Positions 3,905 to 59,621 of a stretch of 64,000 nucleotides of DNA are shown piece after piece. The notes under the pieces were generated by a model that did not search any database, was not told where the DNA came from, and saw only the letters and a list, made by a program, of their open reading frames with translations. The position numbers and the translations under genes were made by a program. Every line of letters begins with the position of its first letter. Within the stretch, counting starts at the first letter, position 1. Where the stretch lies: positions 2,170,001 to 2,234,000 of the forward strand of contig OZ024764.1 in assembly GCA_964016885.1 (NCBI GenBank). The letters are read 5' to 3'. The stretch comes from Eledone cirrhosa. Its lineage: Eukaryota.

Positions 3905-4513
3905 AAGTATGTATACATATATATATATACAGACATACAGTAGTATGTATATATCTACATACATGCACACATATATATGTACGTATGGGTTTACTGAACA
4001 TTTATTATAATGCTCGGTTTGTTTGTAAACAAACAAACAGCCCGAATTAAGCCGTACAGTGTTCGGCAACCATCGTTGCCCTTTTGTTCAACACTGACAA
4101 AGGAACGATATACTAGTTTCTAGCTTATTAGCTATCATCAGCACCGTATACCTTCCTGTCAGATGATTGAACATTTGAAAGTATATACTTTCCTTATGCA
4201 TATTAACGGCTGAGCAGCCTAATTTGCATATCGAGTGAGTTAGTCAGCCGGGCGCACCGAAAACGATAAATGGAAAAGAATGAAATGAAATTTCATTTCC
4301 CACTCATAGTACGGCTGATACTTAAATATAAGTATGTATACGTACATACATATATGTGTACAGACGTACAGTAGTATGTATATATATACACACATGCACA
4401 CATGTATACATGTATACATGTATACATATATGTATGTACGTATACATACTTATATTTAAGTATCAGCCGTACTAAGAGTGAGAAATTTCATTTCATTTCA
4501 TTCTTTTCCATTT
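3905..4513 (-). mobile_element. Diverged dispersed copy (just over one unit) of the 468-bp HHR repeat, with 5' fold-back at 4267-4513
   Basis: Colinear with the reverse complement of the 43.7-51.4 kb monomer; terminally redundant. Confidence 0.9.
4086..4172 (-). ncRNA. Type I hammerhead ribozyme
   Basis: Minus strand reads ACGGTG-CTGATGA-TAGCT aata AGCTA-GAAAC ta GTA-TATCGT; distal helix I AAGG/CCTT, CTGACA/TGTCAG, GTTCAA/TTGAAC. Confidence 0.85.
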
Positions 4514-4558
4514 ATATATATATATATACATGTACACATTTTCATGCACACACACACA

Positions 4559-7592: not shown

Positions 7593-7751
7593 AAGGAAAG
7601 TCAATTAAATTGAGCCCAGTTTATGACTGGTACATTGTCTACCTTGCTTTCAAGGTTGAGGAAAAGGAAGTTAACCTCGGTGGGATTTGAAGCAGAAGAA
7701 ATACTTCAAAGAGTTTCTTCTGACATTCAAACGATTCTGCCAACAACTCGG

Positions 7752-8714
7752 TTACCCCAGCTAATAACCCACCCAACCCCCTCAGGCCCCCTCCTGTTAC
7801 CCCCGGCTAATAACCCACCCTACCCCCACAGGCCCTCTCCTGTTACCCCCGGCTAATAACCCACCCTACCCCCACAGGCCCTCTCCTGTTACCCCCGGCT
7901 AATAACCCACCCTACCCCCACAGGCCCTCTCCTGTTACCCCCGGCTAATAACCCACCCTACCCCCACAGGCCCTCTCCTGTTACCCCCGGCTAATAACCC
8001 ACCCTACCCCCACAGGCCCTCTCCTGTTACCCCCGGCTAATAACCCACCCTACCCCCACAGGCCCTCTCCTGTTACCCCCGGCTAATAACCCACCCTACC
8101 CCCACAGGCCCTCTCCTGTTACCCCCGGCTAATAACCCACCCTACCCCCACAGGCCCTCTCCTGTTACCCCCGGCTAATAACCCACCCTACCCCCACAGG
8201 CCCTCTCCTGTTACCCCCGGCTAATAACCCACCCTACCCCCACAGGCCCTCTCCTGTTACCCCCGGCTAATAACCCACCCTACCCCCACAGGCCCTCTCC
8301 TGTTACCCCCAGCTAATAACCCACCCAACCCCCTCAGGCCCCCTCCTGTTACCCCCGGCTAATAACCCACCCTACCCCCACAGGCCCTCCCCTGTTACCC
8401 CCGGCTAATAACCCACCCAACCCCCTCAGGCCCCCTCCTGTTACCCCCGGCTAATAACCCACCCTACCCCCCACAGGCCCTCTCCTGTTACCCCGGCTAA
8501 TAACCCACCCAACCCCCTCAGTCCCCCTCCTGTTACCCCGGCTAATAACCCACCCAACCCCCTCAGTCCCCCTCCTGTTACCCCGGCTAATAACCCACCC
8601 AACCCCCTCAGGCCCCCTCCTGTTACCCCGGCTAATAACCCACCCAACCCCCTCAGGCCCCCTCCTGTTACCCCCGGCTAATAACCCACCCTACCCCCAC
8701 AGGCCCTCTCCTGC
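7752..8714. repeat. 46-bp C-rich minisatellite, about 21 units
   Basis: Unit GGCTAATAACCCACCCTACCCCCACAGGCCCTCTCCTGTTACCCCC, period 46. Confidence 0.97.
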
Positions 8715-8809: not shown

Positions 8810-10085
8810 TTCAGTAATCAGAACAAGGGAGGTAGGTGTAAAAGCCTAACTCACTATCTTCAATTTGGTTTTCGTCCCAGCCCTTACCTATGGTCATGAA
8901 TCTTGTGTAATGACTGAAAGAATGATTGTGAATACAAGTGGCTGAAATAGGGTTCTTCCGAAGGGTCTTTGGAGTTACGTTACTCGATAGAGCTCGTAGC
9001 TCGTAGCTCGTAGATCAGAGAGTCAAACTAGGTGCAGCTGTTACTTCACTAAATTGAGAGATTACAGTTCTGATACTACAGACATGTGGTTAGAATGTGT
9101 CAGGAAAGAATTTCTTAATTGAGAGATCACAGCTCTGATACTACAGACATGTGGTTAGAATGTCTCAGGAAAGAATCTCTTAATTGAGAGATCACAGCTC
9201 TGATACTACAGACATGTGGTTAGAATGTCTCAGGAAAGAATCTCTTAATTGAGAGATCACAGCTCTGATACTACAGACATGTGGTTAGAATGTCTCAGGT
9301 AAGAATCTCTGAATTGAGAGATCACAGCTCTGATACTACAGACATGTGGTTAGAATGTCTCAGGTAAGAATCTCTGAATTGAGAGATCACAGCTCTGATA
9401 CTATAGACATGTGGTTAGAATGTCTGAGGAAAGAATCTCTTAATTGAGAGATCACAGCTCTGATACTACAGACATGTGGTTAGAATGTCTCAGGAAAGAA
9501 TCTCTGAATTGAGAGATCACAGCTCTGATACTACAGACATGTGGTTAGAATGTCTCAGGAAAGAATCTCTGGATTGAGAGATCACAGCTCTGATACTACA
9601 GACATGTGGTTAGAATGTCTCAGGAAAGAATCTCTGAATTGAGAGGTCACAGCTCTGATACTACAGACATGTGGTTAGAATGTCTCAGGAGAGAATCTCT
9701 GGATTGAGAGATCACAGCTCTGATACTACAGACATGTGGTTAGAATGTCTCAGGAAAGAATCTCTGGATTGAGAGATCACAGCTCTGATACTACAGACAT
9801 GTGGTTAGAATGTCTCAGGAAAGAATCTCTGAATTGAGAGGTCACAACTCTGATACTACAGACATGTGGTTAGAATGTCTCAGGAGAGAATCTCTGGATT
9901 GAGAGATCACAGCTCTGATACTACAGACATGGGGTTGAAACCAACTGGCAGGAGACTCGGAGTTAGACCCTTGGCAAGATGGTTGGCTAACATCTATGAG
10001 CTTGGCTGGTCTTGCTTGAGAATCCAGCCAAATCAGTTGGAGACGGTTACTTCTGACAAAATCCATTGGAAAAGGTGTTTGAGGA
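8810..10085 (+). mobile_element. RTE-like LINE 3' fragment containing a 65-bp tandem expansion (about 9054-9930, about 13 units)
   Basis: Degenerate translation VFVPALTYGHES..MTER and IERSQL..Y.HVVRMSQERI; period 65. Confidence 0.85.
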
Positions 10086-42660: not shown

Positions 42661-43016
42661 ACAGAGATAACCAGTACAAACACTACAACTTGACCTTTGA
42701 CTTTTCAAATGTTGACCTCCTGACCTCTGCCTCCACAAATCTGTGTCACTCAATTAGCTGAAACTCTTTTAAAATATGCAAGTTACCATGGTAACCAAAT
42801 CTAGAAAAGAAAGGTTGTTAACTTCGTAGTAGCTACACCTGCTAGACATAGCAGCCAAACTCCCTTAAATCACACCCTAGTTGTATGGTTCTATGTATGT
42901 ATGCATATATATATATATATATATATATGCATATATATATATACATATATAGATAAATCTACCACAATATACGGTAGTGTCCAATCCGTATGAAGAACTC
43001 AATGAAGTCCAAATAT

Positions 43017-43049
<33 letters not shown>

Positions 43050-43056
43050 ATACATG

Positions 43057-43096
<40 letters not shown>

Positions 43097-43098
43097 TG

Positions 43099-43196
<98 letters not shown>

Positions 43197-43202
43197 CGTG
43201 TA

Positions 43203-43490
<288 letters not shown>

Positions 43491-43504
43491 TATATATGTA
43501 TACA

Positions 43505-43538
<34 letters not shown>

Positions 43539-43544
43539 CGTGTA

Positions 43545-43646
<102 letters not shown>

Positions 43647-43650
43647 CATG

Positions 43651-43681
<31 letters not shown>

Positions 43682-43682
43682 G

Positions 43683-46600
43683 TTGAAACAAAATGAAAAC
43701 GAAATTTCATTTCTCACTCTTAGTATGGCACTTACTTATATAAATTCAGGCTGTTCAGTTTGTTTACAAACGAACAAAGCGACGTTAGCGCCGCTAAACT
43801 GATACGTGCATATATGTATGTGTACCTGTATGCATATGTATGTATATATGTATATATATATATATATATGTGCATGCTACTGTACGTCTGTATACATATA
43901 TGTATGTACGTATACATGCATACTTACATTTAAGTAAGTGCCATACTAAGAGTGAGAAATGAAATTTCGTTTTCATTTTGTTTCAATTTATCGTTTTCGG
44001 TATGCCTGACCGATTTAACTCACTCAATATGCAAATTAGGCTGCTCAGCCGTTAATTTTCATAAGGAAAGTATATACTTTCGAACGTTCAACTATCTGGC
44101 AGATGGGTAAACGGTGCTGATGATAGCTAACAAGCTTGAAACTAGTACATCGTTCCTGTGTCAGTGTTGAACAAAAAGGTGACGTGGTTGCCTTAACACC
44201 GTATGGCATAAATTCAGGCTGTTCAGTTTGTTTACAAACGAACAAAGCGACGTTAGCGCCGCTAAACTGATACGTGCATATATGTATGTGTACCTGTATG
44301 CATATGTATGTATATATGTATATATATATATATATATGTGCATGCTACTGTACGTCTGTATACATATATGTATGTACGTATACATGCATACTTACATTTA
44401 AGTAAGTGCCATACTAAGAGTGAGAAATGAAATTTCGTTTTCATTTTGTTTCAATTTATCGTTTTCGGTATGCCTGACCGATTTAACTCACTCAATATGC
44501 AAATTAGGCTGCTCAGCCGTTAATTTTCATAAGGAAAGTATATACTTTCGAACGTTCAACTATCTGGCAGATGGGTAAACGGTGCTGATGATAGCTAACA
44601 AGCTTGAAACTAGTACATCGTTCCTGTGTCAGTGTTGAACAAAAAGGTGACGTGGTTGCCTTAACACCGTATGGCATAAATTCAGGCTGTTCAGTTTGTT
44701 TACAAACGAACAAAGCGACGTTAGCGCCGCTAAACTGATACGTGCATATATGTATGTGTACCTGTATGCATATGTATGTATATATGTATATATATATATT
44801 ATATATATGTGCATGCTACTGTACGTCTGTATACATATATGTATGTACGTATACATGCATACTTACATTTAAGTAAGTGCCATACTAAGAGTGAGAAATG
44901 AAATTCGTTTTCATTTGTTTCAATTATCGTTTTCGGTATGCCTGACCGATTTAACTCACTCAATATGCAAATTAGGCTGCTCAGCCGTTAATTTTCATAA
45001 GGAAAGTATATACTTTCGAACGTTCAACTATCTGGCAGATGGGTAAACGGTGCTGATGATAGCTAACAAGCTTGAAACTAGTACATCGTTCCTGTGTCAG
45101 TGTTGAACAAAAAGGTGACGTGGTTGCCTTAACACCGTATGGCATAAATTCAGGCTGTTCAGTTTGTTTACAAACGAACAAAGCGACGTTAGCGCCGCTA
45201 AACTGATACGTGCATATATGTATGTGTACCTGTATGCATATGTATGTATATATGTATATATATATATATATATGTGCATGCTACTGTACGTCTGTATACA
45301 TATATGTATGTACGTATACATGCATACTTACATTTAAGTAAGTGCCATACTAAGAGTGAGAAATGAAATTTCGTTTTCATTTTGTTTCAATTTATCGTTT
45401 TCGGTATGCCTGACCGATTTAACTCACTCAATATGCAAATTAGGCTGCTCAGCCGTTAATTTTCATAAGGAAAGTATATACTTTCGAACGTTCAACTATC
45501 TGGCAGATGGGTAAACGGTGCTGATGATAGCTAACAAGCTTGAAACTAGTACATCGTTCCTGTGTCAGTGTTGAACAAAAAGGTGACGTGGTTGCCTTAA
45601 CACCGTATGGCATAAATTCAGGCTGTTCAGTTTGTTTACAAACGAACAAAGCGACGTTAGCGCCGCTAAACTGATACGTGCATATATGTATGTGTACCTG
45701 TATGCATATGTATGTATATATGTATATATATATATATATATGTGCATGCTACTGTACGTCTGTATACATATATGTATGTACGTATACATGCATACTTACA
45801 TTTAAGTAAGTGCCATACTAAGAGTGAGAAATGAAATTTCGTTTTCATTTTGTTTCAATTTATCGTTTTCGGTATGCCTGACCGATTTAACTCACTCAAT
45901 ATGCAAATTAGGCTGCTCAGCCGTTAATTTTCATAAGGAAAGTATATACTTTCGAACGTTCAACTATCTGGCAGATGGGTAAACGGTGCTGATGATAGCT
46001 AACAAGCTTGAAACTAGTACATCGTTCCTGTGTCAGTGTTGAACAAAAAGGTGACGTGGTTGCCTTAACACCGTATGGCATAAATTCAGGCTGTTCAGTT
46101 TGTTTACAAACGAACAAAGCGACGTTAGCGCCGCTAAACTGATACGTGCATATATGTATGTGTACCTGTATGCATATGTATGTATATATGTATATATATA
46201 TATATATATGTGCATGCTACTGTACGTCTGTATACATATATGTATGTACGTATACATGCATACTTACATTTAAGTAAGTGCCATACTAAGAGTGAGAAAT
46301 GAAATTTCGTTTTCATTTTGTTTCAATTTATCGTTTTCGGTATGCCTGACCGATTTAACTCACTCAATATGCAAATTAGGCTGCTCAGCCGTTAATTTTC
46401 ATAAGGAAAGTATATACTTTCGAACGTTCAACTATCTGGCAGATGGGTAAACGGTGCTGATGATAGCTAACAAGCTTGAAACTAGTACATCGTTCCTGTG
46501 TCAGTGTTGAACAAAAAGGTGACGTGGTTGCCTTAACACCGTATGGCATAAATTCAGGCTGTTCAGTTTGTTTACAAACGAACAAAGCGACGTTAGCGCC

Positions 46601-49600
46601 GCTAAACTGATACGTGCATATATGTATGTGTACCTGTATGCATATGTATGTATATATGTATATATATATATATATATGTGCATGCTACTGTACGTCTGTA
46701 TACATATATGTATGTACGTATACATGCATACTTACATTTAAGTAAGTGCCATACTAAGAGTGAGAAATGAAATTTCGTTTTCATTTTGTTTCAATTTATC
46801 GTTTTCGGTATGCCTGACCGATTTAACTCACTCAATATGCAAATTAGGCTGCTCAGCCGTTAATTTTCATAAGGAAAGTATATACTTTCGAACGTTCAAC
46901 TATCTGGCAGATGGGTAAACGGTGCTGATGATAGCTAACAAGCTTGAAACTAGTACATCGTTCCTGTGTCAGTGTTGAACAAAAAGGTGACGTGGTTGCC
47001 TTAACACCGTATGGCATAAATTCAGGCTGTTCAGTTTGTTTACAAACGAACAAAGCGACGTTAGCGCCGCTAAACTGATACGTGCATATATGTATGTGTA
47101 CCTGTATGCATATGTATGTATATATGTATATATATATATATATATGTGCATGCTACTGTACGTCTGTATACATATATGTATGTACGTATACATGCATACT
47201 TACATTTAAGTAAGTGCCATACTAAGAGTGAGAAATGAAATTTCGTTTTCATTTTGTTTCAATTTATCGTTTTCGGTATGCCTGACCGATTTAACTCACT
47301 CAATATGCAAATTAGGCTGCTCAGCCGTTAATTTTCATAAGGAAAGTATATACTTTCGAACGTTCAACTATCTGGCAGATGGGTAAACGGTGCTGATGAT
47401 AGCTAACAAGCTTGAAACTAGTACATCGTTCCTGTGTCAGTGTTGAACAAAAAGGTGACGTGGTTGCCTTAACACCGTATGGCATAAATTCAGGCTGTTC
47501 AGTTTGTTTACAAACGAACAAAGCGACGTTAGCGCCGCTAAACTGATACGTGCATATATGTATGTGTACCTGTATGCATATGTATGTATATATGTATATA
47601 TATATATATATATGTGCATGCTACTGTACGTCTGTATACATATATGTATGTACGTATACATGCATACTTACATTTAAGTAAGTGCCATACTAAGAGTGAG
47701 AAATGAAATTTCGTTTTCATTTTGTTTCAATTTATCGTTTTCGGTATGCCTGACCGATTTAACTCACTCAATATGCAAATTAGGCTGCTCAGCCGTTAAT
47801 TTTCATAAGGAAAGTATATACTTTCGAACGTTCAACTATCTGGCAGATGGGTAAACGGTGCTGATGATAGCTAACAAGCTTGAAACTAGTACATCGTTCC
47901 TGTGTCAGTGTTGAACAAAAAGGTGACGTGGTTGCCTTAACACCGTATGGCATAAATTCAGGCTGTTCAGTTTGTTTACAAACGAACAAAGCGACGTTAG
48001 CGCCGCTAAACTGATACGTGCATATATGTATGTGTACCTGTATGCATATGTATGTATATATGTATATATATATATATATATGTGCATGCTACTGTACGTC
48101 TGTATACATATATGTATGTACGTATACATGCATACTTACATTTAAGTAAGTGCCATACTAAGAGTGAGAAATGAAATTTCGTTTTCATTTTGTTTCAATT
48201 TATCGTTTTCGGTATGCCTGACCGATTTAACTCACTCAATATGCAAATTAGGCTGCTCAGCCGTTAATTTTCATAAGGAAAGTATATACTTTCGAACGTT
48301 CAACTATCTGGCAGATGGGTAAACGGTGCTGATGATAGCTAACAAGCTTGAAACTAGTACATCGTTCCTGTGTCAGTGTTGAACAAAAAGGTGACGTGGT
48401 TGCCTTAACACCGTATGGCATAAATTCAGGCTGTTCAGTTTGTTTACAAACGAACAAAGCGACGTTAGCGCCGCTAAACTGATACGTGCATATATGTATG
48501 TGTACCTGTATGCATATGTATGTATATATGTATATATATATATATATATGTGCATGCTACTGTACGTCTGTATACATATATGTATGTACGTATACATGCA
48601 TACTTACATTTAAGTAAGTGCCATACTAAGAGTGAGAAATGAAATTTCGTTTTCATTTTGTTTCAATTTATCGTTTTCGGTATGCCTGACCGATTTAACT
48701 CACTCAATATGCAAATTAGGCTGCTCAGCCGTTAATTTTCATAAGGAAAGTATATACTTTCGAACGTTCAACTATCTGGCAGATGGGTAAACGGTGCTGA
48801 TGATAGCTAACAAGCTTGAAACTAGTACATCGTTCCTGTGTCAGTGTTGAACAAAAAGGTGACGTGGTTGCCTTAACACCGTATGGCATAAATTCAGGCT
48901 GTTCAGTTTGTTTACAAACGAACAAAGCGACGTTAGCGCCGCTAAACTGATACGTGCATATATGTATGTGTACCTGTATGCATATGTATGTATATATGTA
49001 TATATATATATATATATGTGCATGCTACTGTACGTCTGTATACATATATGTATGTACGTATACATGCATACTTACATTTAAGTAAGTGCCATACTAAGAG
49101 TGAGAAATGAAATTTCGTTTTCATTTTGTTTCAATTTATCGTTTTCGGTATGCCTGACCGATTTAACTCACTCAATATGCAAATTAGGCTGCTCAGCCGT
49201 TAATTTTCATAAGGAAAGTATATACTTTCGAACGTTCAACTATCTGGCAGATGGGTAAACGGTGCTGATGATAGCTAACAAGCTTGAAACTAGTACATCG
49301 TTCCTGTGTCAGTGTTGAACAAAAAGGTGACGTGGTTGCCTTAACACCGTATGGCATAAATTCAGGCTGTTCAGTTTGTTTACAAACGAACAAAGCGACG
49401 TTAGCGCCGCTAAACTGATACGTGCATATATGTATGTGTACCTGTATGCATATGTATGTATATATGTATATATATATATATGTGCATGCTACTGTACGTC
49501 TGTATACATATATGTATGTACGTATACATGCATACTTACATTTAAGTAAGTGCCATACTAAGAGTGAGAAATGAAATTTCGTTTTCATTTTGTTTCAATT

Positions 49601-51411
49601 TATCGTTTTCGGTATGCCTGACCGATTTAACTCACTCAATATGCAAATTAGGCTGCTCAGCCGTTAATTTTCATAAGGAAAGTATATACTTTCGAACGTT
49701 CAACTATCTGGCAGATGGGTAAACGGTGCTGATGATAGCTAACAAGCTTGAAACTAGTACATCGTTCCTGTGTCAGTGTTGAACAAAAAGGTGACGTGGT
49801 TGCCTTAACACCGTATGGCATAAATTCAGGCTGTTCAGTTTGTTTACAAACGAACAAAGCGACGTTAGCGCCGCTAAACTGATACGTGCATATATGTATG
49901 TGTACCTGTATGCATATGTATGTATATATGTATATATATATATATATATGTGCATGCTACTGTACGTCTGTATACATATATGTATGTACGTATACATGCA
50001 TACTTACATTTAAGTAAGTGCCATACTAAGAGTGAGAAATGAAATTTCGTTTTCATTTTGTTTCAATTTATCGTTTTCGGTATGCCTGACCGATTTAACT
50101 CACTCAATATGCAAATTAGGCTGCTCAGCCGTTAATTTTCATAAGGAAAGTATATACTTTCGAACGTTCAACTATCTGGCAGATGGGTAAACGGTGCTGA
50201 TGATAGCTAACAAGCTTGAAACTAGTACATCGTTCCTGTGTCAGTGTTGAACAAAAAGGTGACGTGGTTGCCTTAACACCGTATGGCATAAATTCAGGCT
50301 GTTCAGTTTGTTTACAAACGAACAAAGCGACGTTAGCGCCGCTAAACTGATACGTGCATATATGTATGTGTACCTGTATGCATATGTATGTATATATGTA
50401 TATATATATATATATATGTGCATGCTACTGTACGTCTGTATACATATATGTATGTACGTATACATGCATACTTACATTTAAGTAAGTGCCATACTAAGAG
50501 TGAGAAATGAAATTTCGTTTTCATTTTGTTTCAATTTATCGTTTTCGGTATGCCTGACCGATTTAACTCACTCAATATGCAAATTAGGCTGCTCAGCCGT
50601 TAATTTTCATAAGGAAAGTATATACTTTCGAACGTTCAACTATCTGGCAGATGGGTAAACGGTGCTGATGATAGCTAACAAGCTTGAAACTAGTACATCG
50701 TTCCTGTGTCAGTGTTGAACAAAAAGGTGACGTGGTTGCCTTAACACCGTATGGCATAAATTCAGGCTGTTCAGTTTGTTTACAAACGAACAAAGCGACG
50801 TTAGCGCCGCTAAACTGATACGTGCATATATGTATGTGTACCTGTATGCATATGTATGTATATATGTATATATATATATATATATGTGCATGCTACTGTA
50901 CGTCTGTATACATATATGTATGTACGTATACATGCATACTTACATTTAAGTAAGTGCCATACTAAGAGTGAGAAATGAAATTTTGTTTTCATTTTGTTTC
51001 AATTTATCGTTTTCGGTATGCCTGACCGATTTAACTCACTCAATATGCAAATTAGGCTGCTCAGCCGTTAATTTTCATAAGGAAAGTATATACTTTCGAA
51101 CGTTCAACTATCTGGCAGATGGGTAAACGGTGCTGATGATAGCTAACAAGCTTGAAACTAGTACATCGTTCCTGTGTCAGTGTTGAACAAAAAGGTGACG
51201 TGGTTGCCTTAACACCGTATGGCATAAATTCAGGCTGTTCAGTTTGTTTACAAACGAACAAAGCGACGTTAGCGCCGCTAAACTGATACGTGCATATATG
51301 TATGTGTACCTGTATGCATATGTATGTATATATGTATATATATATATATATATGTGCATCCTACTGTACGTCTGTATACATATATGTATGTACGTATACA
51401 TGCATACTTAC
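43683..51411 (+). mobile_element. 468-bp HHR-containing tandem array (retrozyme-like), about 16.4 units, preceded by a ~55-bp inverted fragment (43683-43738)
   Basis: The ORF track recurs every 468 bp (once 464); 16 HHR copies; long (TA)n on both flanks. Confidence 0.93.
44086..44172 (+). ncRNA. Type I hammerhead ribozyme, first of 16 array copies; predicted cleavage after GUA at 44147
   Basis: AACGGTG-CTGATGA-tAGCT aaca AGCTt-GAAAC ta GTA-CATCGTT; distal helix I GGG/CCT, CTGGCA/TGTCAG, GTTCAAC/GTTGAAC. Confidence 0.88.
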
Positions 51412-52685
<1,274 letters not shown>

Positions 52686-58203: not shown

Positions 58204-58225
58204 GTAGATATGTATATATAGATCT

Positions 58226-58279
58226 AAGTATGTATGTATACGTACATACATATATGTATACAGACGTACAGTAGCACGC

Positions 58280-58310
<31 letters not shown>

Positions 58311-58842
58311 TATACACATATGCATACAGGTACACATACATATATGCACGCATCAGTTTAGCCGACGTTTATTATAACGCAGCTTTGTTCGCTTGTTTGT
58401 CAACAAACTGAACAGCCTGAATTTATGCCATACGGTGTTAAGGCAACCACGTCACCTTTTTGTTCAATACTGACACAGGAACGATGTACTAGTTTCAAGC
58501 TTGTTAGCGATCATCAGCACCGTTTACCCATCTGCCAGATAGTTGAACGTTCGAAAGTATATACTTTCCTTATGAAAATTAACGGCTGAGCAGTATATAC
58601 TTTCGAACGTTCAACTATCTGGCAGATGGGTAAACGGTGCTGATGATAGCTAACAACCTTGAAACTAGTACATCGTTCCTGTGTCAGTGTTGAACAAAAA
58701 GGTGACGTGGTTGCCTTAACACCGTATGGCATAAATTCAGGCTGTTCAGTTTGTTTACAAACGAACAAAGCGGCGTTATAATAAGCGTCTGCTAAACTGA
58801 TGCGTGCATATATGTATGTGTACCTGTATGCATATGTGTATA

Positions 58843-58873
<31 letters not shown>

Positions 58874-58985
58874 GCATGCTACTGTACGTCTGTATACATA
58901 TATGTATGTACGTATACATACATACTTACATTTAAGTAAGTGCCATACTAAGAGTGAGAAATGAAATTTCGTTTTCATTTTTTTT
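58226..58985. mobile_element. Head-to-head fold-back copy of the 468-bp family with two HHRs (58480-58524 -, 58633-58677 +)
   Basis: Both arms match the array monomer; junction near 58590. Confidence 0.92.
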
Positions 58986-59002
58986 TTTCAACTTATATAT
59001 AG

Positions 59003-59117: not shown

Positions 59118-59621
59118 TAGATAGATAAATCTACCACAATATACGGTAGTGTCCAATCCGTATGAAGAACTCAATGTAATCCAAATATCATGGAAAGAGA
59201 AGATGTATTCAAAAGTTTTTTCGATGAAAATCACAGGAAAACAGAGTCAAGATCAATTAATTGTCTCTACTTTAGGCACAAGGCCAGCAATTACCCAGTG
59301 CATTACTGGTACTTTATTTTATCGACCCCGTAAGGATGAAAGGCAAAGTCAACCTCGGCGGGATTTGAACTCAGATCGTAAAGGCACGTAACTATGTTGG
59401 AAAGCATGGCGTCCGACCCTCTACTGATACTGCCAATCCAGAGTCAAGATAAATTAATAAAAACAATGTATAAAAACAAAGAAACAGTTCCTTATATTAA
59501 AAAATTCATCAGTTTACGATCGTTTCTAGGATATATGTGTGTGTATTGGTATGTATATTATATAAATCTATGTAAACATTTTACAAACTATCAGAGGAAA
59601 TACCTACACATATATATGCTG

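Follow-up and report, generated by a model that had tools for sequence, protein, structure and literature searches.

Animal non-LTR retrozymes, their circles and their partnership with Penelope-like elements (PLEs) have been proposed in PMC7229834 and in a 2026 preprint (bioRxiv 10.64898/2026.07.22.740005). Reverse transcription of such circles into tandem cDNA was put forward by Cervera & de la Pena 2020 (PMC7229834), and circles had already been suggested as templates of longer-than-unit PLE copies (PMC4209133). In the anole, a PLE that favours AT-rich DNA cleaves the two strands of its target and extends each of them. It begins reverse transcription at two neighbouring internal sites, between which the genomic tail lies; in vitro it uses unprocessed RNA, and hammerhead cleavage is not needed (PMC11167929). 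A tail on one of two inverted arms, and (TA)n targets, have been described for other PLEs (PMC3846280, PMC8557442). How retrozymes move, and how the tandem and inverted structures of PLEs form, have been called open questions (2026 preprint; PMC8557442). The accessible parts of PMC7229834 and the 2026 preprint contain no map of insertion ends, inverted arms or tails, and a literature search, with most subscription papers outside its scope, found no paper in which the two-site ends or the inverted arms of an animal retrozyme are mapped. Both the general model and the kind of element described here have been published before; the value of the present case lies in footprints of PLE-driven two-site priming that can be counted.

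We analysed a window of 64,000 nucleotides from Eledone cirrhosa, numbered from its first base. The insert under study (43683-51413) measures 7.73 kb, tail arm plus array, and lies between a left (TA)n tract of 0.7 kb (43013-43682), the insertion target, and a right one of 1.3 kb (51414-52684). Unit position 1 is the base that follows the predicted hammerhead cut, first met at 44148. Next to the left tract stands a minus-strand arm, here called the B arm, that consists of the tail only (43683-43738); by sequence comparison it is the reverse complement of unit positions 252-307 with 56/56 bases exact, its outer end lying at a fixed site B and its inner end at a site A. One extra T (43739) marks the head-to-head junction, beyond which the plus-strand A arm (43740-51413) runs through 16.4 tandem units of 468 bp from unit position 61 to site A (250). 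On the plus strand of the first unit follow a TA-rich hairpin block ending at site A (43802-43929, unit 123-250), the tail segment between the two sites (43930-43991, unit 251-312) and a type I hammerhead motif (44111-44153, predicted cut after 44147), present in 16 copies in the array. The original prediction took the 56-bp piece for a 5' inversion of an internal part of the unit, joined directly to the forward array. The complementarity holds to the last base and the piece adjoins the array, but with one base in between, and it is the terminal tail arm of the element rather than a 5' inversion. Likewise the array does start and stop at different unit positions within (TA)n, 61 and 250, but the second of these is a fixed end and not an arbitrary one.

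The units of the array are nearly uniform. Twelve of the 15 full hammerhead-to-hammerhead units are identical, and among five deviant units no variant is common to any two: unit 2 carries three single-base deletions and a 3-base insertion that resemble read error, 4 bases of TA are missing from unit 12, and two substitutions, C289T and G197C, mark unit 15 and the last partial unit respectively. Because the units are near-identical and their variants unshared, the insert was most likely laid down in one event, and on this point the original prediction stands. The insert is made up of 468-bp units only and holds no open reading frame for a reverse transcriptase (RT) or a GIY-YIG nuclease, unlike an autonomous PLE. 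Other sequences in the neighbourhood include a fragment of another TA-abutting repeat (42930-43010 and 59120-59190), which also flanks a retrozyme locus elsewhere (L066), and a minus-strand LINE-like sequence, recognized by eye, at about 52.7-56.6 kb beside the right TA tract. Further young minisatellites of 33, 46 and 65 bp occupy 1-2565, 7751-8713 and 9052-9936 of the window, with 95-96% matches.

The unit has a GC content of 0.36, appears non-coding as judged by eye, and occurs both in tandem and dispersed in many copies. As read from the sequence, its predicted hammerhead comprises a 6-bp helix I, CUGAUGA, helix II, GAAA and a 1-bp helix III closed by a palindromic CUAG loop, and all core bases and helices of a type I hammerhead are present in 16 units of the array. 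A 1-bp helix III has been reported in metazoan hammerheads acting as dimers (PMC4209133, PMC7229834); of nine predicted Xenopus hammerheads, eight were inactive (bioRxiv 10.64898/2026.07.22.740005). The Rfam model Hammerhead_HH9 matches the unit with 18.5 bits (E 0.16), below the gathering threshold, and other Rfam matches were discarded as miRNA noise driven by TA. Folding of the unit is more stable than in 100 shuffles (z = -9.0, 0/100 as stable), largely through the TA hairpin. In the 3.0-Gb genome a 37-mer of the core occurs 10,333 times without mismatch, and its reversed control not at all. With a putative type I hammerhead in each tandem unit, a short low-GC unit and coexisting PLEs, the element classes as a non-LTR retrozyme.

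Words of the unit also occur in sequencing runs labelled as about 15 organisms (runs X1-X20). Among the four of 24 runs examined, contigs of run X2 contain the unit at a summed depth near 10^6 with the unit-to-unit joint visible, runs X1 and X6 contain only traces at depths of 7-50, and none of 12.8 million raw reads of run X23 contains it. We read these words as trace carry-over of a high-copy repeat rather than as horizontal transfer.

We mapped the ends of the element in 113 loci: a first sample of 76, 20 places with a 448T variant, and 17 arrays picked for length or variants. The first sample consists of the loci behind the first 100 among the matches listed for each of two patterns, all on contig C1, together with the three copies in the window; the 113 loci are thus a small, pattern-selected share of some thousands. 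Of 213 arms, 177 end at one of two sites whose windows together cover only 36 of the 468 unit positions: 73 at unit 243-258 (site A, around 250) and 104 at 293-312 (site B, around 310), about 60 nt apart. The other 36 end elsewhere, and in several of these the end falls within the TA run or coincides with the edge of the locus. Loci selected by the tail favour B, and those selected by the hammerhead show identical ends. Terminal matches to the tail pattern all end in one short stretch (55/55), and 53 of the 55 run into (TA)4.

The two sites are, moreover, used in pairs. The 113 loci contain 79 head-to-head pairs, 22 of which have an unclassable end; of the 57 with both ends classable, 56 combine A with B, one is B+B and none is A+A (P 4e-16 against 0.5), the A+B share by sample being 32/32, 12/13 and 12/12. 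We have met no earlier quantification of so nearly strict a pairing, or of the stopping of B arms at site A described below, in the accessible parts of the literature. The sole B+B pair (L149, contig C1 about 130.64 Mb) has its left flank and junction in common with L150 (about 130.73 Mb) and differs in its right flank, and probably arose by recombination of a young copy with an old one. For the other orientation, the two arrangements that come closest belong to the complex loci L057 and L136. Inner ends, by contrast, spread over the whole unit. At tight junctions the arms overlap by 1-5 nt in 43 of 63 cases, with a few fold-backs at palindromes, and there is no pile-up of inner ends near the hammerhead cut (4/101 within 5 nt, 3.1 expected). 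In one locus (L154:1538-1818) an arm has its end two bases beyond the predicted hammerhead cut; a short duplication of the cut-site sequence comes next. A comparison of sequence distances, smaller within a locus than to the nearest other locus in only 8/25 loci, was dropped as uninformative.

The other two copies in the window obey the same rule. An older copy of about 80% identity (3905-4515) has a minus arm with an outer end of A type, judged by eye, and a plus arm (4419-4515) with a B end; in the other (58225-58996) the minus arm runs from unit 362 to 247, an A end, and the plus arm from unit 390 to about 310, a B end, with the junction at 58592. In all three copies one outer end thus lies at unit 247-250 or so and the other at about 307-312, and they differ only in the inner junction (61/252, 362/390 and about 198/210). 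The original prediction had seen inversions in the two dispersed copies, and both are indeed two-armed and head to head; it had also taken them for different circular permutations, which their like outer ends contradict. Permuted, terminally redundant copies had been expected from a circle entered anywhere, combined with a 5' inversion. The spread of inner junctions over the whole unit agrees with such random permutation, but once ends are mapped onto the unit the outer ones prove fixed, not permuted, with 177/213 arms ending at two sites and 56/57 pairs of A+B type. Shared fixed ends, which the original prediction had itself named as counting against it, are thus what the outer ends of the sampled loci show; for these ends the account is refuted, and as a whole it is barely credible.

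The same counts bear on the assembly. Near-identical units between long TA tracts, and homopolymer deletions in unit 2 of the kind typical of long-read error, could mean that the array length or the junction is an artefact. The junction, however, follows the A+B rule like 55 other pairs, contigs of run X2 independently contain the unit-to-unit joint, and both ends of the array lead into non-array sequence; the count of 16 units is that of the assembly, and an artefact is very improbable.

Two-site ends of the A+B kind are the signature known as the PLE tail, and intact PLEs of this genome display it likewise. The genome holds 10,595 GIY-YIG candidates, 150 of which were scored and 20 of which were fetched as loci, several with long open frames. 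Among the eight loci scanned for domains, four have RT and GIY-YIG, two RT only and two GIY-YIG only; open frames with both domains reach 938 aa (L111:2009-4822) and 1096 aa (L113:775-4062), so that the retrozyme does co-occur with autonomous PLEs. In four PLE loci the nuclease is preceded by a CxxxxCxxC finger, a feature reported for the Neptune and Nematis clades (PMC8557442). The PLE families of L111, L113, L116 and L126 each have their own two ends, a one-arm tail and a TA target: in L116, L113 and L126 two head-to-head arms lie in (TA)n and only one of the two bears a tail, of 64, 38 and 41 nt respectively, the tail of L116 having 3,583 exact copies. At L039 a retrozyme arm is joined head to head with an arm of the L116 PLE family, and at L038, L058, L059 and L077 single retrozyme arms have partner arms of other TA-abutting families. 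Likeness between the retrozyme tail and the PLE tails was rejected as a further link, the best match being a 12-mer that 46/300 shuffles also reach. None of the 20 GIY-YIG loci examined, of the 150 scored, has the unit as its own terminal repeat.

From the fixed ends, the A+B pairing, the TA target, the like anatomy of autonomous PLEs and the homogeneity of the units we conclude that the insert very probably arose by PLE-driven, two-site retrozyme insertion in a single event, whatever the shape of the template. In the mechanism we propose, the non-coding hammerhead retrozyme would be copied in trans by a PLE protein with RT and GIY-YIG domains. This enzyme would cleave a (TA)n tract on both strands; reverse transcription of the retrozyme RNA would be primed at site B (around 310) by one of the resulting DNA ends and at site A (around 250) by the other. 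Both cDNAs would then extend towards the 5' end of the RNA, halt at variable points and be joined head to head. In the insert studied here, the B cDNA would have come to a halt at site A, 56 nt from its start, and 16.4 units would have been copied into the A cDNA. Since the latter would have crossed the hammerhead cut site 16 times, its template would not have been a cut linear monomer. Target duplication is not readable inside TA.

Where the B cDNA halts suggests how the two reactions may be related. B arms stop beside site A, at 251-266, in 9 of 62 tight pairs (1.2 expected, P 4e-6), which fits a collision of the B cDNA with a complex primed at A on one and the same RNA. Of 29 passes of A arms through 251-266, three also end there, so the sequence itself may account for part of this stall. 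The five single B arms with partner arms of foreign families indicate that two RNAs can serve one event. In view of these stops and foreign partners, that a single RNA served both arms is something we infer; the identity of the enzyme and the order of priming likewise belong to the proposed model.

Inverted, two-part inserts can also be produced by L1-type twin priming. In its classical form the outer end of one arm is predicted to adjoin the inner end of the other. The array conforms, with its outer end (250) next to the inner end of the tail (252), and the LINE-like sequence mentioned above could be taken to point to an ordinary LINE (APE-RT) enzyme. Nevertheless, there is no poly(A) or fixed repeat tail at the 3' end, both sites of priming lie internally at fixed positions, the majority of arms overlap instead of abutting, and elements with RT and GIY-YIG have the same anatomy. 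The probability of twin priming is accordingly very slight.

Within the two-site PLE event, the shape of the template can be approached through the variants of the units. The lack of a pile-up at the hammerhead cut, together with arms that cross it up to 26 times, means that cut linear monomers are not the main template. In favour of a monomer circle, the two arms of a young insert are built from a single unit type, which differs between loci (466, 468, 474, 495 and 502 bp), and the rare variants 347T (38 matches) and 363A (11 matches) mark small lineages of uniform arrays. The longest case (L166-L169, contig C1 about 292.769-292.789 Mb) is a 20-kb head-to-head insert with 26 units in its A arm and 17 in its B arm, nearly identical; none of its 10 length-deviant and two substituted units is in register between the arms. 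In L075 the variants are private to each unit. Another locus departs from this homogeneity: in L080/L145 (C1 about 69.578-69.587 Mb) the order (448T,41)(33)(41) occurs twice in the B arm and once in the A arm. Counted from the outer ends, the two arms are in register save for an offset of one unit, and the register is not palindromic. Ordered mixed units in both arms are beyond what a monomer circle can give, and L080 is best explained as the product of a mixed multimer template; no source array for its pattern was found in the assembly. At L162 two unit-specific variants are common to both arms, which also fits conversion between the arms, and L146, L152 and L159 are weak cases of such sharing. 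The homogeneity expected from a monomer circle is thus seen in the focal array, L166-L169, L171 and L173 and not in L080, with L162 ambiguous.

Several loci also contain locally repeated blocks: L034 and L152 have variants repeated with a period of two, L170 a nested 9A, and L080 its trimer twice. Such blocks are what would be expected if a short PLE-type insert of one or two units plus tail had later grown to 16 units through slippage or unequal crossover, and local amplification after PLE insertion has been proposed (bioRxiv 10.64898/2026.07.22.740005). For the focal array later expansion is nonetheless improbable, as its five deviant units have no variant in common, many inserts are multi-unit in both arms with one unit type, and L075 has private variants only.

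For a two-site PLE event with the array copied in one step, another genomic array, of 17 units or more, may alternatively have supplied the template as a long linear transcript left uncleaved. Arrays of at least 17 units do exist (L166-L169, L174), the order of units in L080 and the weaker sharing in L162, L146, L152 and L159 are of the kind such a transcript would leave, and the anole PLE took unprocessed RNA in vitro (PMC11167929). However, linear copying by itself can neither make arrays longer nor bring a new variant into every unit, as is seen in the uniform 347T and 363A arrays; the insert of 26 and 17 units has no deviants in register; and the pattern of L080 has no second array in the assembly, while L162 also fits arm conversion. 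We regard the linear multimer as plausible, though distinctly less than an even chance. The focal array is too uniform to decide between circle and multimer from its own units; overall we lean slightly towards a monomer circle as its template, and rolling-circle copying is compatible with the data but unproven. In its fullest form the circular model would have an RT dimer of the PLE prime both ends of the cut TA at two sites 60 nt apart on one circle, with both subunits rolling, for up to 26 and 17 turns; we would put this a little short of evens. If true, double rolling-circle reverse transcription would have left direct footprints in the genome in the form of these arrays, and a single step would suffice to create an array of satellite size.

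Independently of the template, a young high-copy family provides countable footprints of the reaction, namely two fixed start sites, one per arm, a stall of one arm where the other starts, and arms of at most 26 units, and it indicates that one insertion can yield a tandem array kilobases long. The exact positions and candidate partner enzymes given here are available for in vitro work.

Compared with known systems, the element resembles animal non-LTR retrozymes in its non-coding, low-GC tandem unit with one type I hammerhead each, in forming anything from dimers to large multimers, and in its thousands of copies alongside PLEs; its helix III, with 1 bp and a palindromic tetraloop, is like that of axolotl HHR_Amex1. 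Its 468 bp exceed the 170-400 nt given in PMC7229834 and fall inside the 51-972 bp of Li, Clavereau & Pollet 2026. Unlike animal non-LTR retrozymes as described in the accessible literature, the unit bears its own TA block, and unlike Xenopus retrozymes it has no sequence link to a PLE terminal repeat in the 20 GIY-YIG loci examined here. Another parallel is offered by Chlamys PLEs such as MRC1 (PMC8557442), also non-autonomous, moved by PLEs and present in multicopy head-to-tail insertions. MRC1-type elements resemble their autonomous partner at the 3' end, whereas no similarity to a partner was found for the retrozyme in the loci examined here, and the Chlamys PLE clade is described as lacking canonical hammerheads, whereas the retrozyme has a predicted one. 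With EN+ PLEs the element shares head-to-head inverted, 5'-truncated arms with the tail on one arm (PMC11167929, PMC3846280, PMC8557442), two adjacent internal start sites of reverse transcription, (TA)n or AT-rich targets, and palindromes at some junctions. It differs from them in having no open reading frame, a longer tail (about 60 nt, against 30-40) and arms that reach 26 units.
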